From the IMG/VR virus record IMGVR_UViG_3300018494_000062: a DNA stretch of 37,603 nt; one strand, given 5' to 3'. Origin of the DNA: a virus. The position numbers were made by a program, and so were the translations under genes. The notes under the pieces were generated by a model. It saw nothing but the letters and a program-made list of their open reading frames with translations, was not told the DNA's origin and made no database searches. Positions 6,077-34,940 of this stretch are shown here, one piece after another (the first letter of the stretch is position 1; each line of letters begins with the position of its first letter).

Positions 6077-6077
6077 C

Positions 6078-6731
6078 CTACAAATCCCCTTCCTGAAATG
6101 AAATTTTCACTGTTCCTGTTCCTGATATTGTCAAAGAATTGTTTCCTTCCACAAATCTAATATCAAGAATTTTATGTGTTCCAGCACTCAAATTGAATGT
6201 TGATGTGCCAAAAACAATCACAGTGTTATCATTTGAACATTCAATTGAAGGTGACACAGATTTTCTGCTGTTTGTAATATCAACAGCCTTTGGTGTTTCT
6301 GTCAATTTGAAGGTCAGATTTGTGACATACTGCTTCAATTTGTATGGTGCAACTTTTGCCTTGACAACAAATTGCATCAGTTTTCTATCTGAAGAATGAC
6401 TGTCAACAGTGCATCTTCCTAAATAGTAATAATCTTCATCATTGTCAAGTGTGATTTTGCATTTCAAACCATTCAATTTGTTGCTGATTTCTGTCATCTT
6501 TTCTTCCCATGACATTGTTTCTGAAGGAAGCACCGAAAAGGTGAAGGTGCATTCTCTGTCAGAATACTTCACTTCACCATGTGCTTCTGTCAAATCTATT
6601 GAACCATCAGCACCAGGAACATCAATATATGTTGTTTTTGCCTTTGCTGGTGGTATTTCTTTCTTTGAAAGGATCAGATTCAAGTCATAATATGAATGTG
6701 TGTCACCAAATAAAATTCCTTTTCCTATCAT
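6078..6731 (-). CDS. Distal tail protein Dit (Sipho_tail family)
   Basis: GILFGDTHSYYDLNLILSKKEIPPAKAKTTYIDVPGADGSIDLTE is a classic Dit N-terminus. It follows the tape measure gene directly. Confidence 0.85.
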   Translation of the reverse strand: MIGKGILFGDTHSYYDLNLILSKKEIPPAKAKTTYIDVPGADGSIDLTEAHGEVKYSDRECTFTFSVLPSETMSWEEKMTEISNKLNGLKCKITLDNDEDYYYLGRCTVDSHSSDRKLMQFVVKAKVAPYKLKQYVTNLTFKLTETPKAVDITNSRKSVSPSIECSNDNTVIVFGTSTFNLSAGTHKILDIRFVEGNNSLTISGTGTVKISFQEGDL

Positions 6732-9700
6732 TTACCTTCCCCTGTCCTTTCTGCTTGATAATTTTCCAAGTGCCTGATTCATAGGCACTGCCATTGCTGT
6801 TGCAAGTTCATATCCATCCACAGCAAAAGAAACATTAAATGCTTCTTTAAGTTGTGGGAAATATGCTGCAAGCATTTCAATGATTTTCTGCAAATAATAT
6901 GCAAGTGTGTTGTTCTGTTCTGCAACTGCATTTTGAATCATGCTCATAAGTGTGTTTGAACCTGCAACCACTTCACTGCCAGCTTCACCAGCACCCATCA
7001 AATTGCCTGTTGTTTGGTTATAACCGAAAATAGTCGGTTCATCCAGAACAACTGCATTGTTCATGGCTTTTTTGTACCATTCAACACTGACCGCTGGCAT
7101 TCTTCCATTTTCAAGGTCAAAATCACCCTTCAATGAAAAATGTGGTGTCTTCAGTTCTGGTTTCCAGTTTTCAAAGGTGGTCTTCATCTTATCAAGCAAC
7201 ATTCCAATCATGTTTGCTGATTTTTCCACCGCTGAACCCACATCTTCAAATGCAGTGGTTGCCACATCTTTCATTCCTGTGAACACTTCTGTCACAGTGC
7301 CACTTATTTCAGTACATTTCTTTGCAAATGTCCGGAATGCTTCTTGTGTTGCTGCATTTGTTTCATCTTTAAGTTCATAAGTTGCAAGGTCACCTGCAAT
7401 TTCAGTTCTTTTGTTGTGTAGGTCAACATATTCTTGAAGACTTCTGTCAGTCATGGTGTTGATTTCCATTACTTGTGAAAGTGCTGAAACACCCATTCCT
7501 TTGATTTCATTGAATAGGTCAGTGCCACCAATCCTGCTTTCAAGTTTGACAAGTTCATCTTGCCACATTTCAAGTGCTTTGACCTGTGAACCCAGATTGC
7601 CAAGAAGTTCACCTTTTGCAATAGGTTTTGCATTTCCCTCTGTGAATTTTTCAAACAAACTGAAAGAATCTAAAATTGAACCTTGCTGGTCAATGATTTT
7701 CTGGCTTATTTCATCCAAAGAAGACTGCAATTCTTCTTCTGCATCAATAAATTCATCATTTATGTCTTTCTTTGTTTCAAGAAGTTGTTCTTTTGCATCA
7801 AGGTATTTTTGGTCAGCTTTAAATCTTGCATCTGTTCCTTCTTCACACTGTTGTCTGATTTCATCCCAGTATTTCATTTCTTCAATAAGTGATAAATCAT
7901 TGTAAGTCTTGTATTTATCAAGAACATCTTGTGCAGTGTCAAGGACAACTTTGCCCATTTTTTCAGCAGCAGATTCAAGTCTTTTTTTCTGACCTTCCAT
8001 ACCTACTGCCATACCTTCAGCAATCATCTTGCCGACTTCATCACGCATCACCCTTGAAGGTGATTTGATTCCAAAAAGGTTCTTGATGAATTTTGTGATG
8101 TCACCAGTCCATTGTTTAAGTTTTTTCTTAATCCATTCAAATGAACCTGAAATGCCTTTCCAAATACCTTCAACAAGGTTTTTTCCAACTTCACCTGCAT
8201 CATCCCATGCCTTCTTTGCCCACTGTTTTGCTTCTTCAAATTTTTGTCCTATTTTAGCACCTAAACCTGAAAAACCTTCTGCACATAAATTGCTGATATT
8301 TGACCATGTTGATTGTGAATTATCCCATTTGCTTTCAGCCCATTTTTTTGCTTCTTCAAATTTATCACCTATATTTTTCTTTAAATTTGAAAAACCTTCA
8401 ACAACCTTTCCTTTGATGCCTTCCCATGCTTTCTTTGCATTTGCCCATTTTTTCTCTGCTTCTTTTTTTGCTTCTTCAAATTTTTTGCCTAAATCAGATT
8501 TTAATTTTGAAAAACCTTCAACAACCTTTCCTTTGATAGTTTCCCAAGATTGTTTTGCATTCGACCATGCTTGTTCTGCATTCTTTTTGGCTTCACCGAA
8601 TTTTTCACTGAACCAATTACCAACATTTTCAAATGCACCTTGCACATTTTGCTTGACACCTTCCCATTTTTCTTTTGCATCAGACCATGCATTCACTGCC
8701 CATTCTTTTGCACCTGAAAATGTTTCACCGAACCATGCACCAAGACCTGAAAATGTCTGTGTAAGTCCGTCAATAATGCCATTCCAAAGTGCAACAGGAA
8801 GTTCAATGAAAAGTGACTGGAAAATCTGTGGAAGTGCTGCAATTATACCCATCACAAGTTGAATTATACCTTGAATCAATGCAGGTAAATTTTGAACTAA
8901 TGCATTTACAATTGAAATGATTATTGTTGGCAAGTTGTCAATTATTGGTTGTATGATTTGTGGAATCACCTGACACAGCATCACAATCATCTGAACAAGT
9001 CCATCAATTAAAGCTGGAATCAATGTTGGTAGTGCCTGAACAAGTGTTTGAATAATCTGTGGCAATGCATCCACAATTGGCTGTATAATCTGTGGCAATG
9101 CAAGTGCCAAAGATGTGACCAGTTGAACAACACCTTGAATAAGTGCTGGAAGTGCTGACATTATTGCTGAAACAATGCCTGGCATTGCTTGAACAAGACC
9201 ATTCACCAAAGTCACCGCACCATCAACCAATGCTGGCAAAAGTGAATTCAACAAAGGTGGTATCAAAGGCACAATCTGTTGAACAAGGTCTGAAAGTCCT
9301 GTTGTCAATCGTGGTGCAATTTCTGTCAAATTTTTAACAACTACATTTGCAAGATTTGAGAATGAAGAAACAAGACTTTCCACATCCCCTGAACCTGCCA
9401 AAAAGTTTGTCAATGCTGATTTTGCTGTGCTTAATGATCCAGCAAGTGTTTCATTTTCTTTCGCATAGTTCCCTGCTGCATAAGATGTTTTTTCAAGAAA
9501 CATTTCCATTGCAAGACCGATTTTTTCCTGCTGTGTCATTTCCTGTGTGGATTTGTTTATTCCTTTTGATTGTGCATAAGCAGCAATTGCAGTGTCATTC
9601 ATTGCAACACCCAAATTGTCCATCATTGTGAAGTTTCCTTTGGCTGCACCTGCCACTGCTTCCATTGCAGCTTCTGTGTCAATACCCATGATTGATGCAA

Positions 9701-10553
9701 CATCCGCTGCCCTTTGCATTGCTTGTGAAGACAAATTCAATGCTTCTTGTGTTTCAAATCCAGCACCCTTGAACAATGCACCCATCTTGTTTGCTGTTGC
9801 AAGGTAGTCAGACTGTGACAAACCCATGTTTTTATATGCATCTTTTGAAACAGTTTCAAGGTCTTTCGTTGCTGTGATTGCCTTTCCTGTTGCTTCGTCA
9901 TATCCAGTGATGATTGTTGTTGACATTTCACCGATTGTTTCACCTAAATCACCAAAAACGGCTTCAGCACCGCCCATGTTCTGTTCAAGTTCACCACTCA
10001 AGCCTAATGCTTTGGCAGTTAAAACACCCATTCCTGTTGCAGCAGCACCAAGACCAACCAATATGCCCTTGCCAACAACCGCTGCACCTTTGCCGATTGC
10101 ACCAAAAACTTTTCCTAATTTGCTGCCAGTTTTTTCTGCTGTGACATCAAGGTCTTTCAGTGATTTGTCATATTTATCAGCTGCCTTGCTTGCTTCTTCC
10201 AAGTCTTCTTCATTTTTCTGAATTTCCGTTGAAAGTTTTTCAATTTCTTCAGCAACTTTTTTTGTTTCACTGCTGTTTTTCCCTTGCTGCATGTATAGGT
10301 TTTTATATTCGGCTTTTAGTTTGTCGAGTTTTTCTCGCTGTTTTTCCGTTGCTGATGACACTTCATCAAAAGATTTTGCAGCTTCTTTTGATTTGCCACC
10401 ATCAAACATTTTGCTGAAAGATGTGCCAACTTTTGCAAAAAGTGATTCCATCTTTCCTGCAAATGATTCTGTTCTTGTAGAAGTGTTTTCAATTGCTTTG
10501 TTTGCTTCTGAATTGTCAATTGCTATTGTTCCCAGAAGCTTGAATAAATCCAT
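6732..10553 (-). CDS. Tape measure protein
   Basis: 1273 aa with a coiled-coil N-terminus, a hydrophobic LPxIIQ-rich middle and W/F-periodic repeats. It lies between the chaperones and Dit. AAGGGGGTGA SD. Confidence 0.95.
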   Translation of the reverse strand: MDLFKLLGTIAIDNSEANKAIENTSTRTESFAGKMESLFAKVGTSFSKMFDGGKSKEAAKSFDEVSSATEKQREKLDKLKAEYKNLYMQQGKNSSETKKVAEEIEKLSTEIQKNEEDLEEASKAADKYDKSLKDLDVTAEKTGSKLGKVFGAIGKGAAVVGKGILVGLGAAATGMGVLTAKALGLSGELEQNMGGAEAVFGDLGETIGEMSTTIITGYDEATGKAITATKDLETVSKDAYKNMGLSQSDYLATANKMGALFKGAGFETQEALNLSSQAMQRAADVASIMGIDTEAAMEAVAGAAKGNFTMMDNLGVAMNDTAIAAYAQSKGINKSTQEMTQQEKIGLAMEMFLEKTSYAAGNYAKENETLAGSLSTAKSALTNFLAGSGDVESLVSSFSNLANVVVKNLTEIAPRLTTGLSDLVQQIVPLIPPLLNSLLPALVDGAVTLVNGLVQAMPGIVSAIMSALPALIQGVVQLVTSLALALPQIIQPIVDALPQIIQTLVQALPTLIPALIDGLVQMIVMLCQVIPQIIQPIIDNLPTIIISIVNALVQNLPALIQGIIQLVMGIIAALPQIFQSLFIELPVALWNGIIDGLTQTFSGLGAWFGETFSGAKEWAVNAWSDAKEKWEGVKQNVQGAFENVGNWFSEKFGEAKKNAEQAWSNAKQSWETIKGKVVEGFSKLKSDLGKKFEEAKKEAEKKWANAKKAWEGIKGKVVEGFSNLKKNIGDKFEEAKKWAESKWDNSQSTWSNISNLCAEGFSGLGAKIGQKFEEAKQWAKKAWDDAGEVGKNLVEGIWKGISGSFEWIKKKLKQWTGDITKFIKNLFGIKSPSRVMRDEVGKMIAEGMAVGMEGQKKRLESAAEKMGKVVLDTAQDVLDKYKTYNDLSLIEEMKYWDEIRQQCEEGTDARFKADQKYLDAKEQLLETKKDINDEFIDAEEELQSSLDEISQKIIDQQGSILDSFSLFEKFTEGNAKPIAKGELLGNLGSQVKALEMWQDELVKLESRIGGTDLFNEIKGMGVSALSQVMEINTMTDRSLQEYVDLHNKRTEIAGDLATYELKDETNAATQEAFRTFAKKCTEISGTVTEVFTGMKDVATTAFEDVGSAVEKSANMIGMLLDKMKTTFENWKPELKTPHFSLKGDFDLENGRMPAVSVEWYKKAMNNAVVLDEPTIFGYNQTTGNLMGAGEAGSEVVAGSNTLMSMIQNAVAEQNNTLAYYLQKIIEMLAAYFPQLKEAFNVSFAVDGYELATAMAVPMNQALGKLSSRKDRGR
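8221..8760. repeat. About 4.5 tandem 120-bp (40-aa) repeats inside the tape measure gene
   Basis: The exact 32-mer TTTGAAAAACCTTCAACAACCTTTCCTTTGAT occurs at 8386-8417 and 8506-8537. TTTTTTGCTTCTTCAAATTT occurs at 8344 and 8464. Diverged copies lie near 8226, 8584 and 8704. Confidence 0.85.
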
Positions 10554-13849: not shown

Positions 13850-14710
13850 TTATTTCTTGAATTTTGCAAGAACAACTTTTGATTCGTTTGTAAGTGCTAC
13901 ACCATAATATTTTGCAGATGTGATTTCATGTGTCTGGCTTCTTGGTTTCCACTCTGAATCTGTCTGTGTGTCTTTCTTTAAGAAGATTGTTACTGCTGGA
14001 AGTTCATCTTCTGTGTATTCTGTTTCTGCATTTGCAGGTTCAAGTTTGATGATAGGGCATGTGTAAATGCCATCTTCACCAGCAATGATTTTCTTTGATG
14101 GAATAATACGAACACCAGCAATCATGCCAATTTCACCTGACATCATAACATTGTTGTTGTATTTGTCAGCAGAAATGAAGTCACTGTCTTTTCTTAATGC
14201 TGTTACCTGTTCAGGTGCAACAAACATCACTTTGTCTGTGATTTCTTCTTCATCAAATGTGCCAACACCATCAACAATTCCTGCATAGCTGATTTTTGCA
14301 GTGCCATCACCGCTTGTGATTGAAGAAGTAAGAACGGCTGCAAGAACATCATTGTCAACTTTTCCTGCAATTGCTTTTGCAAGCTGCTGTTCTACCTGTC
14401 CAATTAGATTTCCAAGACCGCTGTTCACAGCTTCCTGTGTGATTCCAACTGCTTTCATTGCTTTTTTGATTGTGAATGTTTTTGTGCCTACTGTCATTGC
14501 TGTAAGGTCAACTTCTGCACCTTCTGCAACATCTACCGCATCACCGATATAATTCCATGATGGAACTGTTTTTGTGTCACCTGCAACACCCTGAAGGGAT
14601 GTGTCAAGTTTTGCATATGGTGTGATTTTTAGCATTGCTTCAATTTTAGCATTGATCATGTCACCCATAACTTCTGGATTGATTACATTTGTCATTGTTG
14701 TTAAAGCCAT
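13850..14710 (-). CDS. Major capsid protein
   Basis: 286 aa, positioned right after the scaffold gene. MALTTMTNVINPEVMGDMINAKIE... is typical of small Firmicutes-phage capsid proteins. Strong SD. Confidence 0.85.
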   Translation of the reverse strand: MALTTMTNVINPEVMGDMINAKIEAMLKITPYAKLDTSLQGVAGDTKTVPSWNYIGDAVDVAEGAEVDLTAMTVGTKTFTIKKAMKAVGITQEAVNSGLGNLIGQVEQQLAKAIAGKVDNDVLAAVLTSSITSGDGTAKISYAGIVDGVGTFDEEEITDKVMFVAPEQVTALRKDSDFISADKYNNNVMMSGEIGMIAGVRIIPSKKIIAGEDGIYTCPIIKLEPANAETEYTEDELPAVTIFLKKDTQTDSEWKPRSQTHEITSAKYYGVALTNESKVVLAKFKK

Positions 14711-14735: not shown

Positions 14736-15422
14736 TTATGATTTCATGATTTCTTTGTATGCTTCAGGATTTTCATTGTAGATTTTCTGTCTTTCAGCAT
14801 ACGGCTTTTTCAGAAGGTCTTCTTTTGTGTAACCTTCTTTTTTGTCTGGATCAGGCAGTTTGTTTTCTTCAATTACTTGACCTTTCATCAAATTGCCATT
14901 TCCTGTTTCAAACTGTTGTGGGAACTGCACCTTCAAACCTGAAAGAACATCATCCCATCCTTTGATATTGTCATTTTCATCAAGTTCCAGTGTTTTGTTC
15001 TGTTCCTGCATCTTTTCATTGATTTTGAAAGTCAAATAATCAATGTCAACGGCTTTTTCAGACAATAAAGCAACTTTTACAGCTGATTTGATTTTTGTTT
15101 CCTGAAGTTGTTTTTTAAGGTTTTCAACTTCTGTTTCATAACCTGATATTTTTTTCTGTGCATCTTCATTGCCTTTTGTGCCTTTTTTCAAGTCTGCAAT
15201 CAAATTATTTGCTGTTTCCAGTTCGGTATCTTTGCCAGAAAGTAAATCATTCAGCTTCTGAATATCAAGTTCATGTTTACCTTTGGCAACATATTCACCG
15301 CTTCCTAAATTGCCAAGCTTGATTTGTTTGTCTTTGTTGGCATCATTGCCATTGTGTTCATTGATTTTGGCTTCAATTTGCTTGAACAAATCATCACCCA
15401 AGATTCCTTTTAAAAAATCCAT
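14736..15422 (-). CDS. Scaffolding protein (GP20-like)
   Basis: 228 aa, highly charged and coiled-coil. The N-terminus MDFLKGILGDDLFKQIEAKINEHN is typical. It lies directly upstream of the capsid gene. Confidence 0.75.
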   Translation of the reverse strand: MDFLKGILGDDLFKQIEAKINEHNGNDANKDKQIKLGNLGSGEYVAKGKHELDIQKLNDLLSGKDTELETANNLIADLKKGTKGNEDAQKKISGYETEVENLKKQLQETKIKSAVKVALLSEKAVDIDYLTFKINEKMQEQNKTLELDENDNIKGWDDVLSGLKVQFPQQFETGNGNLMKGQVIEENKLPDPDKKEGYTKEDLLKKPYAERQKIYNENPEAYKEIMKS

Positions 15423-15544: not shown

Positions 15545-15574
15545 AATAAAAAAAGGACATCATTGCTGATGCCC
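15545..15574 (-). terminator. Rho-independent terminator after the fibre cassette
   Basis: The minus strand reads GGGCATCA-gcaa-TGATGTCC (one G:U pair) followed by TTTTTTTATT. Confidence 0.7.
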
Positions 15575-15592
15575 TTTTATAGACTGATTATT

Positions 15593-16012
15593 TTATTCAT
15601 CAATTTCCCAATATGCAGGATAGTCAGTTGGATTCCAAACACAGACACTTCCTTCTGGTGCAATACATCTGTATTTTTTGCCTTCAAATGTCATTTTGTC
15701 ACCGCCATAATACCATTTGCCAACCACAAATTCTGGATATTCGTCTTCTGTTGGTGTTTCACCTTCTGATTCAGTGTCATTTCCTGCATTGAATCTTGCT
15801 TCAAGTGCTTTGATTCGTCTGTCCATTTCTTCAAGTTTTTTAAGGACATCAACACTGTCTTTTGGATTTGCTTTGTCCTGTGCCAGTTTTAGAAGTTCTG
15901 ATCTTTGTTCATCTGTGATGAATCCTTTCACCCATATGGTGTCAATCTTTTTGAGTAGGTCAGAAAGTTCAAATTTTCCTTCCTGTGCAACATTTTTGAT
16001 TATGTTATACAT
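15593..16012 (-). CDS. XkdX-like N-terminus, coiled coil and a CBM5/12-like carbohydrate-binding C-terminus
   Basis: WVKGFITDEQRSELL resembles XkdX. GKWYYGGDKMTFEGKKYRCIAPEGSVCVWNPTDYPAYWE fits the W..GD.V...G..Y.C....W.P...P..W pattern. ATG at 16012 lies 7 nt after AAGGGGGA; the alternative start is 16018. Confidence 0.6.
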   Translation of the reverse strand: MYNIIKNVAQEGKFELSDLLKKIDTIWVKGFITDEQRSELLKLAQDKANPKDSVDVLKKLEEMDRRIKALEARFNAGNDTESEGETPTEDEYPEFVVGKWYYGGDKMTFEGKKYRCIAPEGSVCVWNPTDYPAYWEIDE

Positions 16013-16025
16013 ATTCATTCCCCCT

Positions 16026-18521
16026 TTATGTTGTTATGTTAAGAACCGATTTTTGAAGTTCTATGAATTTGTTATCAATATATGATTTTGTGTCAGCCAC
16101 ATATTCAACAGCCATATGTGCATTTTTGTCATTGAAAATGTTGGTTGTTGTTTTGTGACAGTGAATTGCTTTATATGCTGCAATTTCTTCTTCTGAAAGT
16201 GGTGTTTCAATAGGTGTTTCAAGTTCATAAAGCACACTAAATGGATTGTTTTCAATCCATGTTCGCAAACTGTCAACATCACTTATACCTTCAGGAACTC
16301 TTATCATAGCACCATATGCATTGCCAATCTTGAAGAATCCAGATTGTGTGAGTGAACCAGACACAAAAACAAAACGATTGGATAAAGCTGCACCATTCGC
16401 TTTTGATGGATAGGTCATTGAAGTTTTTACAAGGTAGAAATATGATTCAGCACTTTTCACCCATCTTTCATCTTCTGATCCATCATAATTTGCCAACATC
16501 ACCCTTTGCACATAAACACCTTTTTCAAGGTCAATTTCATCACAAATCCACTGTTGACCGCTTGCATCAGTATAATTGCCACCTGATGCCACTGGAATGC
16601 CTGGCAGTCCGTTTGTTGCGGAAAAGGTTGCTGTTTTCACTTCCTTTCCCAGTTCAAAAGGTGTTGCATCTTCACCTATTTCAAGTTGTGGTTTTATAAC
16701 AAGATTATTAAGCACAACCCCTGCTTTTACATAAAATTTCAAAGTGGTTAAATTTCCATTGAATGAATATGTTTTTTTAACATCACCAACTGGCAATTCG
16801 TATTTCCCATCAATGTATGGTTGCATGTAATATGTTGAAGGTGAACCGCCTGACACACCTGATAAAGTGTATGTACCTTTGACAAGCAAATTGCCCTGAA
16901 ATATTGAAAATGCAGTGTCATCTTCAGCTGTACCATTTACCACTATGTGACCATTATCTTTGACAGTGAATTTGATGCCTTTTGCTTCCATACTTCCTTT
17001 GGCATAAGGGAATGGGATCAGATTCTTCCCATACACACCCACTTCAATGCCATCTTCAGCAATATTTACCAGTTCTTGTGCCCATTCAGGTGATGGTGAA
17101 GGCACTGCACCTGAATATTCTTCAAATTCAGTTTCAGTTTCGCCAACCTCAATTTGTATGTTTTCTATTCTTAATTTGTTTGAATTTAAGCAAAATGCAG
17201 GATAAAACACTGCACCAGAGTATGCACTGCTTATGGTAAATTTTTGTGATATCCTTTTTTTCTCGTTTATGGGCAAACTTATATTGTATTTCCCAGAGTA
17301 ACCATTGCCAGTTCCTTCTACATATAGATGGATATTTGTCACATTTGGTGTTGGTGAATTTCCAGTTTCTAAAAGTGTAATATCGGCAGATACTGTTACA
17401 GTTTGATTTTCATATAATGTAGGGCATATGCCAGTTTCATCTGACCATCCACTCATTAACCACCCACGAGAATAACTATTTGTTTGAGTACTGGATTCTT
17501 TTTGATTCCCTTGTGCAATAACACCATTTTCTAATTCTTCAATGGTTTTTCCTTCCGATATTCTTGGCTTTTTATAACCATATAAGTTCTTACCAGTTGT
17601 GGTTTTCTGTGTTGTCTTGCCGTATATGTTTAATGCCCTTAACTTTGCATTTGAACTGTCATTCAGATGAATGCTTTCACCTTCATCTTCACAAACAATT
17701 GCCCTGTCATTTATAAAGGCAATATCATCAGTGTTTTGTGTGATTCTTGCTTCATGGTCATCAAGTGTGTCTGCATCCTTTTGGAATTGCTGTCTGACCG
17801 CTTCCCCTGCTGAATCATACTGTGTGCCATCATGACCAACACGAATGTCCATAAGTTCAGCATCACCAGTTGTGCTTCCTTCTTTCATTGTGGCAAGGTT
17901 GTCAACCCTTGCTTTCAAAAGTGCCTGTTCTGCTGTTAAATTCGCAATATTGTCTTTGTTTTCTTTTACCTGTACAATGTCAAGCTGACTTGCAACAGTG
18001 TCATCAACCCAGATTCTGATTTGATTTTGAAGTTCCTGTTTCCATGCTTCTATAATATCAACATATTCTTCAAGCACTTCATCTGAACAATCAAGACCTT
18101 TTCCAACAGATATTCCGCTGAAGATTGATGTGTTCCATGCATAATCAACATCAGTACCATTCAAACAAACAAAACGGACTAAAAATGCAAGACTTCCTGC
18201 ATATTTTGTGGCATTCCTTGAAAGAAGCCATGAACATTGCACATTGTTTTCATCCGTTTCATCAATTTGCAAGTCTGTCACTTCATAAATGCCTGTTGTC
18301 TGTTCTTTTGTATCTGAATTGATGTAATGTATTTCAACTTTGTCACTTTCAAGCATGTCATGGCCTTCAACAAATCTTGGAATTGTGAAAGTGAATCTTT
18401 CAGAATTGTGGTCATTCTGCATGATTGAAATTTTAGTTGGTGTCATGTTTTTTATTGTCCTTGTTATAGGATCAATCACAAAGTGTGCATCTGTATCAAA
18501 TACTTTTTTTGTATGTGACAT
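16026..18521 (-). CDS. Large fibre / receptor-binding-type protein with a BppU_N-like N-terminus
   Basis: ISIMQNDHNSERFTFTIPRF...VEIHYINSD is BppU_N-like. A coiled coil follows, then the fibre motif GDAELMDIRVGHDGTQYDSAGEAVRQQ and about 550 aa of beta-rich sequence. ATG at 18521 follows GAAAGGGGTGA; the track start at 18530 is a GTG inside the SD. Confidence 0.7.
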   Translation of the reverse strand: MSHTKKVFDTDAHFVIDPITRTIKNMTPTKISIMQNDHNSERFTFTIPRFVEGHDMLESDKVEIHYINSDTKEQTTGIYEVTDLQIDETDENNVQCSWLLSRNATKYAGSLAFLVRFVCLNGTDVDYAWNTSIFSGISVGKGLDCSDEVLEEYVDIIEAWKQELQNQIRIWVDDTVASQLDIVQVKENKDNIANLTAEQALLKARVDNLATMKEGSTTGDAELMDIRVGHDGTQYDSAGEAVRQQFQKDADTLDDHEARITQNTDDIAFINDRAIVCEDEGESIHLNDSSNAKLRALNIYGKTTQKTTTGKNLYGYKKPRISEGKTIEELENGVIAQGNQKESSTQTNSYSRGWLMSGWSDETGICPTLYENQTVTVSADITLLETGNSPTPNVTNIHLYVEGTGNGYSGKYNISLPINEKKRISQKFTISSAYSGAVFYPAFCLNSNKLRIENIQIEVGETETEFEEYSGAVPSPSPEWAQELVNIAEDGIEVGVYGKNLIPFPYAKGSMEAKGIKFTVKDNGHIVVNGTAEDDTAFSIFQGNLLVKGTYTLSGVSGGSPSTYYMQPYIDGKYELPVGDVKKTYSFNGNLTTLKFYVKAGVVLNNLVIKPQLEIGEDATPFELGKEVKTATFSATNGLPGIPVASGGNYTDASGQQWICDEIDLEKGVYVQRVMLANYDGSEDERWVKSAESYFYLVKTSMTYPSKANGAALSNRFVFVSGSLTQSGFFKIGNAYGAMIRVPEGISDVDSLRTWIENNPFSVLYELETPIETPLSEEEIAAYKAIHCHKTTTNIFNDKNAHMAVEYVADTKSYIDNKFIELQKSVLNITT

Positions 18522-18550
18522 CAAAATCACCCCTTTCTTTTACTTATCTT

Positions 18551-19348
18551 TTATGCAGTGGCAATTCCACCGCTTTTATATCCTATAATTTTGTATGGAA
18601 TACACCATCCATTGCTTTTTGTGGATGCTCTTATATATGCATCTTCAAATTCTGCACCGCTGTCTGTCATTTTATATTTTCTATATCTACTCAATTCATC
18701 ATCATCTGTTATCAATGCATATGTTTCCCCTTTGCAACAGCATTCTGCTTCTTCCAAAAATCCACCACTATTTTGATTTGCAAAGACAATTTTAAATCTT
18801 GTGTATTCACTCAAATCAAGTGCAATTGTCTGTGCAGCAAATGCCGTTGTGATGTCTGGATTTGTCCATAATTCAGTGCCATTCAAGGTTTCATTCACTT
18901 CTGCAACATAATCTTCAAATCTTTTGTTGAGTGCTGTTGTAAATGGATCAAGATGTCCATTCACCGCTGCCAAAAACTGTTGATACAAGTCCATTGTTGG
19001 ATTTAGTGTTGTATATCCAGCATCTGCACCTTGTTCAATCTTGTATTTTACCAGTGTTGATGTCTTGATTGCTGTTCCGTCTATTGTTGCACCCCTTACA
19101 CCAATAAAAAGTGTTCCTGCTTCTGCAAGCACTTCATGTGGAACAACACATGCATCATCAGTCAACAGCATTTCAACTGGTGTTGTGTTCTTTGCCGTAT
19201 GAAACACCGCTGTTCTTGCACTGTAATCATTCCAGGCATCATCAAACACAACTTGAAGCTGAACAGATTCAACATCACCTGATGCAATTTTGACCTTCTG
19301 TGCAGCAATCAAATGTTGATCCGCTGTGTATAAGTTTATAACTGTCAT
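18551..19348 (-). CDS. BppU_N-like baseplate/receptor-binding-type protein
   Basis: VQLQVVFDDAWNDYSARTAVFHT...GTLFIGVRGATIDG...VKYKIEQG is BppU_N-like. The C-terminal head has ELWTNP...AQTIALDLSEY. GAAGGGGA SD. Confidence 0.6.
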   Translation of the reverse strand: MTVINLYTADQHLIAAQKVKIASGDVESVQLQVVFDDAWNDYSARTAVFHTAKNTTPVEMLLTDDACVVPHEVLAEAGTLFIGVRGATIDGTAIKTSTLVKYKIEQGADAGYTTLNPTMDLYQQFLAAVNGHLDPFTTALNKRFEDYVAEVNETLNGTELWTNPDITTAFAAQTIALDLSEYTRFKIVFANQNSGGFLEEAECCCKGETYALITDDDELSRYRKYKMTDSGAEFEDAYIRASTKSNGWCIPYKIIGYKSGGIATA

Positions 19349-19365: not shown

Positions 19366-19396
19366 AATAAAAAAAGGACTGAATTCAATCAGTCCT
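19366..19396 (-). terminator. Rho-independent terminator (proximal of two)
   Basis: Perfect 8-bp stem AGGACTGA/TCAGTCCT with a 6-nt loop. On the minus strand it is followed by TTTTTTTATT. Confidence 0.75.
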
Positions 19397-19410
19397 TAAA
19401 AAATTGCATT

Positions 19411-19445
19411 AAAAAAGCACCCTGCATTCATTCCTGCAAAGTGCT
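19411..19445 (-). terminator. Rho-independent terminator (distal of two)
   Basis: The minus strand reads AGCACTTTGCA-ggaatgaa-TGCAGGGTGCT, an 11-bp stem with two G:U pairs, then TTTTTT. It starts 3 nt after the stop of the 72-aa ORF. Confidence 0.65.
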
Positions 19446-19447
19446 TT

Positions 19448-19666
19448 TTATTTTTGTCTATCTTTGAAGAAGTCTGCCCAGTATGGATTTTCTTCATCAA
19501 ATATTTTCTTCTGCTCTGGTGTCAATTTGTGTGGATAATCAGCAAACATGTTGAATATATGTTCTTTGTCAAAGCTGAACAACCATTCGCCAACTGTTTC
19601 AGGATTTTCAACCCACCAGATTGCATCTGAAGGATTGTTTTTATAAAACTTATTTAATTGTGCCAT
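19448..19666 (-). CDS. 72-aa hypothetical protein (candidate partner of the MuF C-terminal domain)
   Basis: AAAGGAAGGG SD lies 5 nt upstream. Its start overlaps the last 17 nt of the MuF gene. No family recognised. Confidence 0.6.
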   Translation of the reverse strand: MAQLNKFYKNNPSDAIWWVENPETVGEWLFSFDKEHIFNMFADYPHKLTPEQKKIFDEENPYWADFFKDRQK

Positions 19667-21461
19667 ATTTACCCTTCCTTTGCTCGTTTTCTGCTGTGTT
19701 TATATACCCTAAAAGGTTTTTAAGGTCATTTGAATCCTTAAATGAATCAACATCAATCATGAACGAATCCACACCAAATGTGCTTTTAACCTCGCCAAAC
19801 CTTGATTTGAGCGTATAACCTGGATTTCCGTTGAAATCTGTCCATCCGCTTCTTGTTGCTGATTGCAATTCAAGATATTGCAGTATGCCTTCATCCGTTT
19901 TCCTTACAATAGCTGCATGTTTGCCTGAAACAAGATAGTATTCTTTGCTTGTTTCAAGTTGTTTTAACAGCTTTTTGCCTGCTGTTACTGATGATTTTGC
20001 TGATTCCGTTATTGTTTTAATGCCTGGAAGTCTGGATATTGCATCCAAATTAAACTTGGTTGCAAAGAATCTTCTGCTTGCACCATCTCTGAAGTCAAGC
20101 ACATTCAAGCCACCCTTTTGCCCAATATAAGCAAGACCAACTGAAGCACAAGAACCAGATGTGTTGTCACCACCTGACAGAACATTGATGATTTCATCAT
20201 TTGTCAAAGGTGTGTCATGTCTTTTTACTTCTCTGTATTCAACACCTTGTGTTTTCAAATCATCAATAATCTTTTTGCAATCATCACTTACTTTTTCCGC
20301 TTGTATTTTAACACCTTTTACATTATTTGTCAATACCTTTGTTGCTTTCGGCTGTTTATTAAACATAGGATTGTTTGCAAGTAATTTGGAATAATGGTTG
20401 TATTCCCTTGTGTTCATCATGTCCAGAACCTTTTGAAAATCCTTTGTGCCATACTTTTCTTCCATCTGCTGAACATAATTCATATACTTCTTATTTTCCT
20501 TTGAATAGAAGCCTTTTTTGAATTCTGCATAGTCTTCTGGCTTTTCAAATGATTCAAGTTGCTTTGTGAAGTTGTTCATCTTTGTGAATCCACCTTGCAC
20601 CGCCCATCTTGCCCTTTGAAGCAATGCACACCGACAATTGACAACTTCTGCTGCACCGCCTGAAGAATCACCAGGAAGCATCAAACCATTGCTGAACTTT
20701 TCATCAAGTTCCCTGATTTCACCATCAACCATTGCATGTGATTCCCTTGTCTTGCCATCAAGTGTTGCATCCCACTGTTTGACCACATCAGCACCTTTTT
20801 CTTTTGCCTTGTAGCATGTGTCCATTGCTGATTGACACTGTATTCTGTGGCCTTCTGTCCTTGCAATCCTGATCGCATTGTTATATCCAATTTTGGTATA
20901 TGCAGAAAGTTGTTGTGCAACTTGCTTGAATGTCATGCCTGTTGCAATGCCCCTGCTGACCTGTGCTGTGATTTTCTTCTTCAGCAAGCCAACATCTTCA
21001 CCCAGTCTTGAATATAAACCTTGACTGATTTTTGAATCCAGTTGCACTGCTCTGACCATTGCTTCCTGATCCAAAGGAAAACAAAGCGGAATGCCCTGTC
21101 CTTGCAGGTCATACATTGTGCCAATAAATCCGTCTTCATAGCATTTATTGAGATAATCAGCAACATTTGTGAATTCTTCCTTGTGCATCTTGTCAAGAAT
21201 GTCACTGACTTGCTTTTTCAATGATTCCTGGTATTTCTTTTGATACACTTTTGACTGCATCCTTGATTTTAGAATTTCCCTTTCTTCTTCATCTTCAATG
21301 TTGTCATATACAGCTTTCAGGTCTTCAAATTCTTCATGCAGTGTCTGTGCCTTTTTTGTGATGTCATCAAGTGATTTGTTGTAGGCTTGTTTTAATCTTT
21401 TGATGATTGCTTCTTCATTGTTCAAAAAGGTTTGTTGCACTATTTTTTGCCTTTTATTCAT
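19650..21461 (-). CDS. Head morphogenesis protein, SPP1 gp7 / Mu F family, with a ~310-aa C-terminal extension
   Basis: IRIARTEGHRIQ...DATLDGKTRESHAMVDGE...VVNCRCALL is the Phage_Mu_F core at about aa 190-285. Residues ~290-603 are additional and unassigned. Confidence 0.85.
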   Translation of the reverse strand: MNKRQKIVQQTFLNNEEAIIKRLKQAYNKSLDDITKKAQTLHEEFEDLKAVYDNIEDEEEREILKSRMQSKVYQKKYQESLKKQVSDILDKMHKEEFTNVADYLNKCYEDGFIGTMYDLQGQGIPLCFPLDQEAMVRAVQLDSKISQGLYSRLGEDVGLLKKKITAQVSRGIATGMTFKQVAQQLSAYTKIGYNNAIRIARTEGHRIQCQSAMDTCYKAKEKGADVVKQWDATLDGKTRESHAMVDGEIRELDEKFSNGLMLPGDSSGGAAEVVNCRCALLQRARWAVQGGFTKMNNFTKQLESFEKPEDYAEFKKGFYSKENKKYMNYVQQMEEKYGTKDFQKVLDMMNTREYNHYSKLLANNPMFNKQPKATKVLTNNVKGVKIQAEKVSDDCKKIIDDLKTQGVEYREVKRHDTPLTNDEIINVLSGGDNTSGSCASVGLAYIGQKGGLNVLDFRDGASRRFFATKFNLDAISRLPGIKTITESAKSSVTAGKKLLKQLETSKEYYLVSGKHAAIVRKTDEGILQYLELQSATRSGWTDFNGNPGYTLKSRFGEVKSTFGVDSFMIDVDSFKDSNDLKNLLGYINTAENEQRKGKYGTIK

Positions 21462-21478
21462 AGCACATCACCACCTTT

Positions 21479-22966
21479 TTATTCTTCAGGTGTGTCAATT
21501 GGAATTTCATCTTCTTCTGTTGTTTTCACCGCTGACAGCATTGCTTTTGCATCATCAGTGTTCTTTTCTTCCTGCATCTTTTCAATCTGGTCTTTCAATT
21601 CATCAAAATTCCAGTCCATAACTTCACAGATTGCTTTCAATGTCTTTTCATCACCAACATTTGCAGCAACATTCAAGATTGTGTTCACTCTGATTTGCTG
21701 TGTTTCAGCTTCAGTTTTCTGATTCTGAATGTTTTCTGTTTCATTTGTCAGTGATGTTCTTTCAAAGTTGAATTCAATGTCTTTAAGCTGATAATCAGTG
21801 CCATTTTCCTGATTGATTTCAGCAAGAACCACTTTGACAATTTCTTTTAATACTTTGCAAAGTCTTTTTGTCATGGCAATTGCTTTCAAATCCAGTGCAT
21901 AGAATGCTGTTTTGACTGCCATGTTTGTTGTTGCATTTGTATCTTTCAAGCTGGTTGTGTCCATACCCATGCCGAACTTGTAAATTGCTTTTTCATCAAG
22001 TTCAAGTTTTTCTTTTCTTGCCTGGTATGGAATATCAACTGTCTGAATGTCAATGCCACCTTCAGCATCAACACCAACCACTTTCTTTGTTTTTAAGTTC
22101 TGCTGAAGTTCATCAAGGTTGTCACCCTGAAAACCTTTTACAACATGAATTGGTGTGTCAAAATCCTTCAGGTTGTTTGACAATGCACATGCATGAAGGT
22201 CATAATCATCAATCAATGCTTTAATTGGTGCAAGACCGCTGATTTGCTTCTTGTTATTGTCCAACCGCCAAAATGGAATATATCCCAAAGGATAACCCAT
22301 TCTTTTGCCTGTCTTTTCATCCGTATAAACCACATGTGGTCTTGGATTGATTTCAACTGTATCATCAAGCTGAATTTTGCCTGTTGAACCTGCTTGAACA
22401 TAGAAATATGTTTCATTCTCTGTCCAGTCCTGAATCCTTTTAATGACCTTTTTGCCCTTGTCAATTCTGTCTATATACCAGAACAGAATATGGTCACAGT
22501 CATCATCAGTGTCTTTTGCTCTTACTTCAACAACACCCATTCCATCAGCTTGCTGAAAAGAAAGTCTGTTGTCTTTGTTTTTATATCCGTAAATGTAGTC
22601 AAAGCCTTTGTTGTATGCCCCTTTTACAAGTTCACCGATTTCAGACCAGAATTCATCATCAAAATACATGTCAAGATGGTCTTGCAATCCTTCTGTCTTT
22701 TCTTTTGCTTTGATTGGATTTTCTTTGAATGATAGAACATAAGATGCAAGCTGATCAGATAACAATGTGAAGAATGGATGACTGATTTTGATGTTGCTTC
22801 TGTATGTATCTTCAGTCAGTATTCCATCTGTATTGAAATAAAACATTCTATAATTTAGAATGTCATGTCTTGCATCATAATATCTTTGACCTATTCCAGC
22901 CATGTGTTTTTTCTCTGATGTTATATCTTCATCAATGAACCTTTTAATTTCTGCTATTGATAACAC
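21479..22966 (-). CDS. Portal protein (SPP1 gp6 family)
   Basis: 495 aa. The N-terminus IKRFIDEDITSEKKHMAGIGQRYYDARHDILNYR is typical of SPP1-type portals. GTG start about 10 nt after AAGGGGTGA. Confidence 0.9.
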   Translation of the reverse strand: MLSIAEIKRFIDEDITSEKKHMAGIGQRYYDARHDILNYRMFYFNTDGILTEDTYRSNIKISHPFFTLLSDQLASYVLSFKENPIKAKEKTEGLQDHLDMYFDDEFWSEIGELVKGAYNKGFDYIYGYKNKDNRLSFQQADGMGVVEVRAKDTDDDCDHILFWYIDRIDKGKKVIKRIQDWTENETYFYVQAGSTGKIQLDDTVEINPRPHVVYTDEKTGKRMGYPLGYIPFWRLDNNKKQISGLAPIKALIDDYDLHACALSNNLKDFDTPIHVVKGFQGDNLDELQQNLKTKKVVGVDAEGGIDIQTVDIPYQARKEKLELDEKAIYKFGMGMDTTSLKDTNATTNMAVKTAFYALDLKAIAMTKRLCKVLKEIVKVVLAEINQENGTDYQLKDIEFNFERTSLTNETENIQNQKTEAETQQIRVNTILNVAANVGDEKTLKAICEVMDWNFDELKDQIEKMQEEKNTDDAKAMLSAVKTTEEDEIPIDTPEE

Positions 22967-34563: not shown

Positions 34564-34586
34564 AAGGGAAAAAGGTGGTGCATTAC

Positions 34587-34940
34587 ATGTCAAAAAATAT
34601 AGGTGAAAAAATAAAAATCCGCAGAAATGAACTTGGATGGACATTGCGTGAATTAGCTGACCGCATGGGATATGCCAATCATTCAACTGTTGCAAGAATA
34701 GAATCAGGAAAAGTGGACATCCCACAATCAAAGGTGGTGAAATTTGCTGAAGTAATGGGAACAACAGTGGCTTTCTTGATGGATTGGGAAAAAGTGCAAA
34801 AAAATAATGATGTCATGGCTGACATCATTATAAGAATGCGAACTGATGAAGATTTTCTTTCTGTTGTTGAATCATTATACAAACTTGATTCTGAAAAAAT
34901 TGTTGGTGTGAAACAGATGCTGTCAGCTTTTTTGAAGTAA
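34587..34940 (+). CDS. CI-like XRE-family HTH repressor without a peptidase domain
   Basis: IGEKIKIRRNELGWTLRELADRMGYANHSTVARIESGKVDIP is an HTH_XRE pattern. It is 117 aa from the ATG at 34587 (AAGGTGGTG SD). No S24 Ser/Lys domain is present. Confidence 0.8.
   Translation: MSKNIGEKIKIRRNELGWTLRELADRMGYANHSTVARIESGKVDIPQSKVVKFAEVMGTTVAFLMDWEKVQKNNDVMADIIIRMRTDEDFLSVVESLYKLDSEKIVGVKQMLSAFLK

Follow-up and report, generated by a model that had tools for sequence, protein, structure and literature searches.

The described systems closest to the locus studied here are the MuF polymorphic toxins. In the founding survey of these proteins, 75% of the toxin domains on MuF had homologues among other families of polymorphic toxins, and about two thirds of the MuF proteins with C-terminal extensions carried no recognisable domain there (Jamet et al. 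2017, PMC5576092). For the Apk2 MuF toxins there are validated toxin/immunity pairs: Apk2 makes (p)ppApp and is neutralised (PMC12226406). The fusion of a papain-like domain, Tox-PL1, to MuF has also been reported (Zhang et al. 2012, PMC3482391); literature searches on MuF together with cysteine protease, and on Tox-PL1, found nothing beyond that paper.

We analysed a stretch of viral DNA of 37,603 nucleotides (IMG/VR record IMGVR_UViG_3300018494_000062), here called the window. Its MuF locus is probably a polymorphic effector cassette of MuF type in a temperate siphophage, made up of a capsid-delivered thiol-hydrolase effector and its cognate inhibitor or antidote. The observations behind this reading are the anatomy of the locus, invariant residues, domain swapping, gene pairing, and conserved promoter and terminator motifs. 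The toxin-plus-antidote class as such is known already, while the C-terminal domain, here termed CysHis, was previously unnamed; its role as a toxin is that of a candidate. The gene and its parts are as follows.

19650-21461, minus strand: gene of the MuF (SPP1 gp7-like) minor head protein, 603 aa (open reading frame and Pfam Phage_Mu_F)
20346-21461, minus strand: constant part of the protein, aa 1-372, comprising N-terminal region, MuF core and linker (identity to relatives)
20355-20375, minus strand: junction motif NNPMFNK, aa 363-369, at the end of the constant part (alignment of relatives)
19653-20309, minus strand: variable C-terminal domain, aa 385-603, predicted papain-like Cys-His domain, phrog_7104 (PHROG and AF2 model)

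An earlier note on this DNA had placed the end of the Phage_Mu_F core near aa 285, with the protein running on to aa 603. This agrees with the Pfam match at aa 162-280 (20622-20978; E 1e-16, 62 bits against a cut-off of 29.6) and with the position of VVNCRCALL at aa 273-281. With PF04233 or PF06152 as the N-terminal criterion, the 603-aa protein belongs to the MuF superfamily. An SPP1-type portal gene (SPP1_portal, 21479-22966) lies directly upstream of the MuF gene, with terS and terL upstream as well, and the head module holds a scaffold gene (PF06810) and a major capsid protein gene, i.e. it is of the scaffold-plus-capsid type. Exactly the same 603-aa protein was present on 24 metagenomic contigs, with neighbouring genes identical in kind, and the identical gene also occurred on contigs of up to 130 kb. 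The phage can be regarded as temperate, as had been supposed, because it encodes a large serine recombinase (35803-37440) and an HTH repressor (34575-34940).

The proposal that the N-terminus of this protein is conserved while its C-terminus is swapped was borne out by alignment. Over aa 1-372, two relatives (L165 and L166) share 59-85% identity with the window, and only 10-20% beyond that point. Among the 30 closest relatives of the N-terminus (55-80% identity; 13 of them viral, 17 metagenomic), at least nine other, unrelated C-termini occur, including HExxH and JAB types, and none of the 30 contains CysHis. The point of divergence is immediately preceded by the motif NP[MIV][FY][NS]K in 15 of the 18 relatives scanned. 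Two further loci (L005 and L009) have the MuF core and CysHis too, but their linker differs. Most of the alternative C-terminus types are followed by a distinct small open reading frame of their own, preceded by a Shine-Dalgarno sequence; L166 has no small open reading frame in this place. Behind all loci examined, the same 265-aa backbone gene was found.

In the window, the small gene that follows the C-terminal domain consists of these elements.

19448-19666, minus strand: gene of DUF7675, 72 aa, candidate inhibitor or antidote partner of CysHis (Pfam PF24723, phrog_6473)
19672-19679, minus strand: Shine-Dalgarno sequence AGGAAGGG of the 72-aa open reading frame, within the 3' end of the MuF gene and 5 nt ahead of the ATG (19664-19666)

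The strong Shine-Dalgarno sequence and the 17-nt overlap with the 3' end of MuF, both pointed out before, stand. That the 72-aa open reading frame is a real gene follows from its match to DUF7675 (E 2.6e-34, 117.4 bits against a cut-off of 27, model positions 1-65/65) together with its 966 homologues; it also matches phrog_6473. It also travels with the C-terminal domain, as the possible pairing of toxin and immunity gene had implied. DUF7675 was located immediately downstream of CysHis in 84/84 viral loci and adjoined it in 79 of the 80 loci from bacterial genomes, ten of these being convergent (opposite strand); none of the 30 sister MuF loci with other C-termini had it. The bacterial pairs span Bacillota, Bacteroidota, Actinomycetota, Fusobacteriota, Pasteurellaceae, Spirochaetia and Saccharibacteria. 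For example, DUF7675 lies directly downstream in Streptococcus pneumoniae prophage IPP67 and in Butyrivibrio phage Ceridwen (CysHis identity to the window 38-45%).

The cassette also appears to carry transcription signals of its own.

20305-20333, minus strand: sigma-70-type promoter-like site TTGACA-17 nt-TAAAAT with extended -10 TG, 11/12 match to consensus
19406-19449, minus strand: intrinsic terminator 1, 15-bp stem and T-run, overlapping the DUF7675 stop codon (fold energy)
19367-19397, minus strand: intrinsic terminator 2, 9-bp stem and T-run (fold energy and simple scan)

The promoter-like site lies inside the MuF open reading frame at the cassette boundary, about 640 nt upstream of DUF7675. 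Sites matching at 10/12 or better were present at the junction in 28 of 105 de-replicated CysHis loci as against 15 of 1015 control windows, an enrichment of about 18-fold. Among the 15 relatives bearing the junction motif (18 scanned), nine had an 11/12 site whatever their C-terminus, and its offset from the junction motif in relatives with other C-termini varied from 6 to 51 nt. In L171, a 12/12 site is situated just upstream of the locus's own small open reading frame. We also considered that the site might simply reflect a conserved peptide motif. This was rejected, as the codon phase of the -10 element is constant but the codons encode NTM, DII or VKI; the shift of 6-51 nt speaks against such an origin as well. 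The position of the site is conserved across cassette types, and its activity as a promoter is predicted from the consensus match. Since no in-frame start codon follows it in the window, it could there express only DUF7675.

As for the two terminators that had been seen behind the 72-aa open reading frame, the tandem hairpins together reach -33.2 kcal/mol (z = -6.0), and none of 200 shuffled sequences was as stable. Terminator-like hairpins follow DUF7675 in 38/93 clusters, compared with 142/4745 control windows. A simple terminator scan picked up the second hairpin only.

The C-terminal domain itself contains the following conserved positions.

20148-20150, minus strand: Cys438 codon, predicted nucleophile, in the motif GGDxTxGSCxS (conservation and model)
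19917-19919, minus strand: His515 codon, predicted general base (conservation and model)
19863-19871, minus strand: Glu531-Leu-Gln533 codons (YLELQ), candidate third catalytic or orienting residues (conservation and model)
19653-19709, minus strand: conserved C-terminal tail GYINT-x4-Q-x-K-G-x2-G-x2-K, up to the stop codon (conservation)

The earlier note had delimited a distinct terminal domain at aa 385-603, and this region is indeed separate, because it has its own match to phrog_7104 (E 3e-37 for aa 385-603 alone), exists in some phages as a separate gene of 204 aa and is given a confident fold by AF2 (pLDDT 90.1, pTM 0.89). The family comprises 1043 clusters at 50% identity and is found on 518 IMG/VR contigs; it includes prophages of pneumococci and other streptococci, and many gut Clostridia. 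In all 150 matches listed, the domain ends at the protein C-terminus or at most two residues from it. The cysteine and histidine named before are at the expected positions. In an alignment of 413 unique family members, Cys438 (GSCAS) is cysteine at 406/406 non-gap positions and His515 (GKHAAIV) is histidine in 413/413 sequences, while Glu531 is present in 412/413 and Gln533 in 413/413. The RF and NT motifs are also conserved at about 100%, which together with the C, H, E and Q residues indicates that selection maintains the family as an active enzyme. In the AF2 model, Cys438 (domain residue 54) is at the N-terminus of helix 53-65, His515 (residue 131) is the first residue of beta-strand 131-137, and Glu531 and Gln533 (E147 and Q149) lie at or just after strand 143-147, the next after the histidine strand. 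We infer that the latter two could serve as third catalytic or orienting residues. Within the tail, the residues N, T, Q, K, G and G are 96-100% conserved. Whether the Q-x-K-G-x2-G pattern was a by-product of the overlapping DUF7675 Shine-Dalgarno sequence and start codon was also considered; this was excluded, as the tail is equally conserved in the ten convergent loci, where the genes do not overlap, so that the constraint acts on the protein.

The guess that this region is a cysteine hydrolase gained support from the fold. Searched against PDB with Foldseek, the model gave no match at E<=0.001 (best E 8.5e-3), and the matches were weak (TM 0.3-0.5; 0.30-0.37 by query length). The best of them were to Josephin clippase, lymphostatin, the PaTox protease-like domain, UfSP, phytochelatin synthase, tegument DUBs, C39 peptidases and NTAQ1. 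We take 23 of the 25 best matches to be papain-fold thiol enzymes (Josephin, C58-like, UfSP, phytochelatin synthase, DUBs, C39). The modelled fold class is papain-like, though the structural matches are weak, and the domain is probably a papain-like thiol enzyme, with its modelled cysteine, histidine and third residue laid out as in papain. None of the sequence-profile methods used joins it to any papain family. There is no Pfam model for the domain, and 0/46 members searched at E<=10 matched any papain-type model; NCBIfam gave no match to aa 385-603 and PADLOC nothing usable for the enzyme domain; PDB sequence searches (phmmer with a single sequence, and a profile) gave no match; and hhalign against an approximate papain sequence returned a probability of 0.5%.

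A papain-like enzyme in this position might act on the phage's own proteins instead. The domain would then be a processing or releasing peptidase, cutting the MuF linker, a co-fused effector or the scaffold/portal during head assembly or after ejection, with DUF7675 as a timing regulator. Zhang et al. 2012 proposed the same for Tox-PL1 fused to MuF (PMC3482391). In its favour, CysHis occurs exclusively on MuF-type N-termini and with no other toxin-trafficking domain among 80 long family representatives, of which 61 have a recognised MuF domain. This restriction also counts against the preferred reading as an effector, most MuF toxin domains being shared with other families (PMC5576092). One chain (P0268) combines MuF2, an ADP-ribosyltransferase and CysHis, so that a peptidase could free the ADP-ribosyltransferase. 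The other C-termini found in the same slot are mostly peptidase-like (HExxH, JAB), and the weak BFVD matches include actinophage proteins that go by the name 'capsid maturation protease and MuF-like fusion'. However, the MuF protein of the window has no further extra domain to release, and nothing in the head module points to a protease-dependent pathway. The C-termini of sister phages that share the backbone are unrelated or very short (for example L262), which makes an essential morphogenetic role unlikely, and orphan or convergent DUF7675 genes and a separate promoter are hard to fit to an assembly regulator. Overall, we regard a peptidase acting on phage proteins as unlikely. The narrower reading as a prohead protease was rejected: phrog_595, labelled 'head maturation protease' in PHROG, aligns to aa 1-390, i.e. 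to the MuF part and not to the Cys-His domain, and same-backbone sister phages are without the domain. In addition, no Pfam match was obtained to prohead protease families (HK97/S78, ClpP-like S14/S49, U9/U35).

As for DUF7675, its conservation raises a different alternative. The small protein is better conserved than the enzyme (mean pairwise identity 56% versus 43%), across phyla, and motifs such as FDxENPyW..FF.dR are nearly invariant; we would have expected the opposite of a specificity-determining immunity protein. It could instead be a helper of the enzyme, such as a chaperone, packaging adaptor, cofactor or activator, or it could protect or mimic a conserved cellular target. Observations on Apk2 MuF toxins agree with this, since interchangeable immunity proteins there are those that reverse the chemistry, whereas binders of the toxin are mostly partner-specific (PMC12226406). 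Moreover, DUF7675 also stands alone: 19 of the 73 sampled genes with enough upstream sequence lay away from any CysHis. Such copies occur in phages without CysHis, behind tape-measure genes and among early genes. With about a quarter of the sampled genes so placed, DUF7675 may have a function of its own, although these solitary copies also resemble orphan immunity genes. Against a helper, translational coupling and near-obligate adjacency best fit a stoichiometric binder, and catalysis is hardly to be expected of a 72-aa protein that resembles no enzyme family or solved fold: a PDB sequence search found no match, and the AF2 model (pLDDT 80.6, with three of the five models reaching only 48-49) had no structural neighbour in PDB (best E 3.5). 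A helper needed only for packaging would likewise have no need of its own promoter, terminators or convergent orientation. A role as helper or target mimic therefore seems improbable to us. Our literature search found no paper mentioning DUF7675.

It is very unlikely that DUF7675 is an unrelated moron (e.g. for superinfection exclusion or anti-defence) that often settles after MuF genes, the extension being a structural, non-catalytic head component: its seemingly separate promoter and terminators, its 19/73 occurrences elsewhere in phage genomes and the predicted status of catalysis would allow this, but adjacency in 163/164 loci across phyla and in both orientations, as against 0/30 same-backbone sister MuF loci, and the invariance of Cys, His, Glu and Gln in 413 sequences argue against it.

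For the preferred reading, a capsid-delivered effector with its antidote, the following model can be proposed. By analogy with SPP1 gp7, whose likeness is the reason for this assumption, aa 1-372 would be incorporated in the capsid at the portal and exit along with the DNA. The exchangeable cassette would begin at about aa 373 and comprise the papain-like thiol hydrolase domain (C438/H515, E531/Q533) and the DUF7675 gene. During late expression, translational coupling would lead to joint production of DUF7675 and the enzyme, as suggested by the 17-nt overlap and the Shine-Dalgarno sequence inside the MuF gene, and DUF7675 would keep the enzyme inactive in the producing cell by binding it. In the lysogenic state, the cassette is probably a transcription unit of its own from which only DUF7675 would be translated, given the junction promoter, the tandem terminators and the lack of an in-frame start codon. 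The lysogen would thereby hold an antidote against enzyme injected by related phages. When the phage infects a naive cell, enzyme carried in the capsid would get inside, where it would act on a conserved cytoplasmic target by cleavage or deamidation. This could harm the cell, help with its takeover, or bias the lysis/lysogeny decision.

A more specific version of this model combines several elements, and we put it forward as quite a long shot. MuF C-terminal cassettes in general would be autonomous promoter-effector-antidote-terminator units, partly switched on in the prophage. The papain-like domain would not be a growth toxin but a virion-delivered (iso)peptidase or deconjugase, stripping a conserved host modification at DNA entry, for example the ubiquitin-like conjugation of antiphage defence. 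Such an activity is suggested by the nearest structural matches, which are Josephin, UfSP and tegument-type proteases of ubiquitin-like proteins, and by the JAB/MPN domains in the same slot of sister phages. DUF7675, which is conserved from Bacillota to Bacteroidota and Saccharibacteria, would act as a pan-phylum off-switch or target mimic.

Whichever activity applies, one large group of uncatalogued MuF extensions is now defined, most likely as a papain-like thiol enzyme, and a first role is proposed for Pfam DUF7675, that of the enzyme's cognate partner. The conserved junction promoter points to a possible way for lysogens to remain protected with the toxin gene off, and it also marks the recombination point of the cassette. 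If the enzyme is really injected, the protein it targets would be one conserved in bacteria and manipulated by phages of many phyla as they enter.

The locus shares with MuF polymorphic toxins the N-terminal MuF domain, the position of the gene right after the portal, the temperate phage, the variable enzymatic C-terminus swapped between close relatives and the co-varying small downstream open reading frame (<150 aa). It differs in that CysHis is outside the catalogued toxin domains, is without a Pfam model and falls into the class 'extension with unknown domain' of Jamet et al.; in that it is found only on MuF proteins and is not common to other toxin families; and in that its partner is more conserved than the enzyme and occurs in many phyla. 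While activity and neutralisation have been demonstrated for Apk2, toxicity and immunity of CysHis are predicted from sequence. With Tox-PL1 (PF15644, Gln_amidase), the domain has in common a papain-like thiol domain on MuF within a prophage packaging module. The signatures NC-H-DxQ of Tox-PL1 and SC-H-ExQ of CysHis agree in order and layout without being identical, and homology of the two is possible. However, no CysHis member matches Pfam at E<=10, in a library assumed to include PF15644, and the immunity families of Tox-PL1 are Imm35 and SUKH, not DUF7675. SPP1 gp7 of Bacillus phage SPP1, the short MuF prototype, is alike in its N-terminal family and its position after an SPP1-type portal gene, but it is a single-domain protein (PMC5576092) without enzymatic extension or partner gene.

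The order of the two genes, enzyme and then small partner, also has a parallel outside MuF proteins. In the staphopain/staphostatin pairs of Staphylococcus aureus, the gene of a thiol protease is followed by a small gene for an inhibitor acting inside the producing cell. Staphostatins are beta-barrels of about 100 aa and their partner proteases are secreted; they share the gene order with CysHis/DUF7675, with no known homology to DUF7675 and no known phage context. In nuclease-colicin operons, the immunity gene has its own constitutive promoter within the toxin gene. The promoter predicted here differs in lying at the start of the toxin domain, some 640 nt upstream of the antidote gene; its likeness to the colicin arrangement is that an embedded promoter could keep the antidote on while the toxin operon is off.

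The window belongs to a temperate siphophage or prophage and has most of its genes on the minus strand. Packaging is represented by small and large terminase genes, and the other features considered here are placed as follows.

1164-2120: amidase endolysin, tail/lysis group
4379-6076: tail endopeptidase-type protein, tail/lysis group
6732-10553: tape-measure-sized ORF, so called from size and position only
13850-14710: major capsid protein, a head gene
14736-15422: scaffold (PF06810)
15593-16018, minus: 141-aa ORF with a CBM_5_12 carbohydrate-binding module
16026-18530, minus: 834-aa ORF with a weak PHROG match to 'virion structural protein'
18551-19348, minus: 265-aa ORF
19367-19397: terminator 2 (hairpin and T-run), downstream of DUF7675
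19406-19449: terminator 1 (hairpin and T-run), in tandem with terminator 2
19448-19666, minus: 72-aa DUF7675 ORF, overlapping the last 17 nt of the MuF gene
19650-21461, minus: MuF gene (603 aa), next after the portal; aa 162-280 match Pfam Phage_Mu_F (E 1e-16)
21479-22966: SPP1-type portal gene, packaging/head
34575-34940: HTH repressor, a lysogeny gene
35803-37440, plus: large serine recombinase, a lysogeny gene

Between the scaffold and the MuF cassette (the exchangeable part from aa ~373, i.e. the C-terminal domain with its small partner ORF) lie three genes (15593-19348, minus), flanked by terminators at 19367-19449 and 15551-15578. A homologue of the 265-aa gene follows the cassette in every sister locus examined (loci with a related MuF N-terminus and another C-terminus), which gives a constant backbone around the cassette. 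Homologues of the 834-aa gene are also present downstream of the cassette in sister phages; in a head module, large genes of a fibre-like or carbohydrate-binding type are unusual, and they could encode head fibres or decoration proteins. An 11/12 promoter-like site antisense within the portal gene (22177-22206, plus) may be due to chance.

The Shine-Dalgarno sequence AGGAAGGG is positioned 5 nt upstream of the ATG of the 72-aa ORF. As this ORF matched Pfam DUF7675 with 117 bits (cut-off 27) and had 966 homologues, it is a real gene. Its predicted fold comprises four short strands and two helices (pLDDT 80.6); no structural neighbour was found in the PDB and no mention of DUF7675 in the literature. 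The tandem terminators have a fold energy of -33.2 kcal/mol (z = -6.0), and hairpins resembling terminators followed DUF7675 in 38 of 93 clusters, compared with 142 of 4745 control windows. The earlier note had described a 603-aa MuF protein extending beyond its Phage_Mu_F core into a separate domain (aa 385-603), and an SD-preceded 72-aa ORF overlapping the gene end by 17 nt and followed by two terminators. Since the ORF, SD, Pfam and terminator results agree, this description was right in every detail.

Residues 385-603, for which we use the working name CysHis, behave as an independent domain. On their own they match phrog_7104 (function label 'unknown'), and in some phages they form a stand-alone gene of 204 aa, the gene order there being portal, MuF (335-350 aa), CysHis domain, DUF7675, scaffold and capsid. 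In such split loci (L001-L004 at 4959-6817, L073 and L079), the MuF and CysHis genes abut or slightly overlap, DUF7675 is still next with a 17-nt overlap, and the -10 hexamer of the junction promoter described below shares nucleotides with the start codon of the stand-alone CysHis gene. Searches of Pfam, NCBIfam and PDB sequences (the last with a single sequence and with a profile) linked the domain to no named family, and no literature mention of it was found. An AlphaFold2 model built from alignment A1 (46 sequences) reached pLDDT 90.1 and pTM 0.89. Foldseek against the PDB gave no strong match (best E 8.5e-3, TM by query length at most 0.37), and the weak matches were nearly uniform in kind: a Josephin-type ubiquitin clippase, lymphostatin, the PaTox protease-like domain, UfSP, phytochelatin synthase, tegument-like deubiquitinases, C39 bacteriocin-leader peptidases and NTAQ1, all of which we take to be papain-fold thiol enzymes.

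The pair C438/H515, considered earlier to be compatible with a cysteine hydrolase, proved invariant and is placed in a papain-like manner in the model: C438 (motif GGDxTxGSCxS) at the N-terminus of a helix, H515 as the first residue of a beta-strand, and the likewise invariant E-x-Q (E531, Q533) on the strand that follows. This modelled secondary structure agrees with the papain-fold thiol enzyme class. Among 413 unique family members, C438, H515, E531 and Q533, together with an RF pair and an NT pair, were ~100% conserved. Because of the Foldseek list, the secondary-structure layout and these conserved residues, we treat the CysHis domain as a predicted active papain-like thiol hydrolase, its fold class being assigned with moderate confidence; it may be a peptidase, isopeptidase, deamidase or transferase. 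At its very C-terminus the protein has a tail, GYINT-x4-Q-x-K-G-x2-G-x2-K (19653-19709, minus; aa 585-603), that is 96-100% conserved, also in loci without the DUF7675 overlap; the chain almost always stops three residues past the last Gly of this tail. The tail could serve as a signal for packaging, as an autoinhibitory element or as a site of self-cleavage.

Searched with a profile, 1.84 billion representative proteins yielded 1043 CysHis clusters at 50% identity, and in all 150 matches listed the domain ended at most 2 residues from the C-terminus. In IMG/VR, 518 contigs encode it. Isolated-phage records with the domain were 16 Streptococcus prophages (including the S. pneumoniae IPP and phiARI phages) and Butyrivibrio phage Ceridwen, where it is annotated as a hypothetical protein in nearly all cases ('Phage protein' and 'minor capsid protein' labels stand under three matches). 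Bacterial genomes carrying it belong to Clostridia, Streptococcus, Negativicutes, Fusobacterium, Bacteroidota, Actinomycetota, Pasteurellaceae, Spirochaetia and Saccharibacteria. Phage_Mu_F was detected in 47 of 80 long representatives and Phage_min_cap2, the second MuF family, in 14; two contained an additional ADP-ribosyltransferase and one an intein, while no other toxin-trafficking domain was found in any of the 80. Within this sample the domain is thus MuF-exclusive. Among the family proteins, P0268 (827 aa) joins Phage_min_cap2 (MuF2), an ADP-ribosyltransferase exotoxin domain and CysHis in a single chain, and P0310 (828 aa) has its intein between the MuF core and the CysHis domain.

Whether the N-terminus is kept and the C-terminus swapped across MuF homologues, a check proposed in the earlier note, was examined with aa 1-384 as query against IMG/VR and public metagenomes. 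The 13 and 17 relatives obtained (55-80% identity) bore out the expectation: none of the 30 possessed the CysHis domain. A common junction motif, NP[MIV][FY][NS]K (NNPMFNK in the window, aa 363-369), is followed by at least nine unrelated C-termini, several of them HExxH metallopeptidase-like, several JAB/MPN-like (HNHPxxxPPSxxD), and others. The closest IMG/VR relatives, L165 and L166, are 59-85% identical to the window over aa 1-372 and 10-20% beyond. L005 and L009 resemble the window in the MuF core (50-78%) and the CysHis domain (65-77%) but differ from it in the linker. Such a mosaic pattern is as would be expected for a polymorphic toxin locus.

The 72-aa ORF had also been proposed to go with this particular C-terminus, and it does. 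DUF7675 lies directly 3' of the CysHis domain in 84/84 viral loci, in most of which the short overlap recurs, and adjoins it in 79/80 bacterial-genome loci, the remaining one having no room downstream; it was found in 0/30 sister loci. In IPP67 and Ceridwen it is directly downstream although their CysHis domains are just 38-45% identical to that of the window. It is co-directional in 69 bacterial-genome loci and just downstream on the opposite strand in 10, mostly of Bacteroidota (L210, L223, L231, L232, L241, L242, L243, L247, L249 and L250), where its transcription must then be independent of the late operon. Across 101 de-replicated pairs, mean pairwise identity was 56% for DUF7675 versus 43% for its CysHis partner. 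Most sister loci have their own small SD-preceded ORF, of 44-47 aa (some JAB and HExxH types) or of 51, 61 or 79 aa (others); one locus has two and one has none. JAB/MPN-type C-termini are followed by highly charged (E/K-rich) ORFs of 44-46 aa in L110 (3708-3848), L168 (5676-5810) and L171 (5536-5673), and L110 additionally has, past a terminator, a DUF7675 gene that looks like the remnant of a previous cassette.

Viewed in reverse, the CysHis domain was upstream in 54 of 78 sampled DUF7675 loci. In 19, at least 700 nt of upstream sequence was present, yet without the domain; these look like orphan copies, located after a tape-measure-like gene, amid early-type genes, or 288 nt past a MuF-JAB gene and its 46-aa ORF. 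Orphan loci include L112, L118, L120, L127, L130 and L132 (about 3990-4200), L121, L125 and L131, L137, L138 and L140, and L150 and L154; settings among them are ~160 nt past a 792-aa tape-measure-like gene, small early-type genes (with a PAPS-reductase gene in one region), and positions after Bro-N-like genes.

A consensus scan detected a sigma-70 promoter-like site (TTGACA-17 nt-TAAAAT with an extended -10 TG, 11/12; 20333-20305, minus) inside the MuF ORF at aa ~377-386, the boundary of constant part and variable C-terminus; a single match of this kind means little alone, its weight coming from positional conservation. In 105 de-replicated clusters, matches of at least 10/12 occurred between -70 and +45 nt from the domain start in 28, versus 15 of 1015 control windows within the same ORFs; for at least 11/12 the numbers were 8 and 2. 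The hexamers keep one codon phase, yet the residues they specify differ and the spacer is variable, so it is the DNA that is under constraint. The junction motif was present in 15 of 18 scanned sister loci, 9 of which had an 11/12 promoter 6-51 nt past the motif (at least 9/12 in 12 of the 15). Near-consensus sites right after the motif are seen in L165, L259, L260, L262, L263, L265, L266 and L269; in L171, of JAB type and without the motif, a 12/12 promoter lies ~105 nt upstream of the MuF stop and shortly precedes the small ORF of that locus. No in-frame start codon was found after the promoter in the window, so DUF7675 would be the sole product translated from the predicted transcript, which would stop at the tandem terminators. 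We infer that the cassette may be a moron-like transcription unit, supplying the partner independently of the late operon via the predicted promoter. The site may also serve as a recombination anchor for cassette exchange. Nuclease-colicin genes contain internal immunity promoters, which the predicted promoter inside the MuF gene would resemble by analogy.

MuF proteins belong to the minor components of the phage head, and the one that has been studied is SPP1 gp7; fusions to MuF are believed to be packaged and then injected with DNA (PMC5576092, PMC5512222, PMC3482391). The best-supported model, which we consider probable, is that of an injected thiol hydrolase with DUF7675 as silencer and protector. 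As part of the 603-aa protein, the predicted enzyme would be taken into the capsid and from there reach the next host; DUF7675, synthesised alongside it during late infection, would silence it in the producing cell. Transcription from the internal promoter, or orphan copies carried by other prophages, would supply DUF7675 that protects lysogens against incoming enzyme, whose effect might be killing, help in takeover or countering of defence. The domain is unlikely to act instead as a processing or releasing peptidase, the role proposed by Zhang et al. for MuF-Tox-PL1 (PMC3482391), and there is similarly little probability that DUF7675 is a helper, target protector or mimic and not an inhibitor. 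That the two are unrelated neighbours is hardly credible; their adjacency is kept despite the change of orientation, and a functional link is therefore favoured over shared transcription alone.

The toxin/immunity interpretation proposed earlier is thus supported as far as computation goes. New here are a large family of papain-like domains, so far unnamed, whose dedicated partner is DUF7675, and, at the level of sequence, a conserved internal promoter-like site at the cassette junction. While they establish no new principle, these findings are useful for studies of effectors delivered by phages and of prophages from pneumococci and the gut. The system resembles the MuF polymorphic-toxin class in architecture, position, swapping, co-varying small ORF and temperate lifestyle; it differs in that CysHis is no catalogued toxin domain common to other toxin families. 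No Pfam model matched the CysHis family, the Tox-PL1 model PF15644 being assumed to be in the library. A MuF protein fused to papain-like Tox-PL1 was described in 2012 (PMC3482391); the Tox-PL1 signature is NC-H-DxQ, whereas that of the CysHis family is SC-H-ExQ, and homology between the two is possible.
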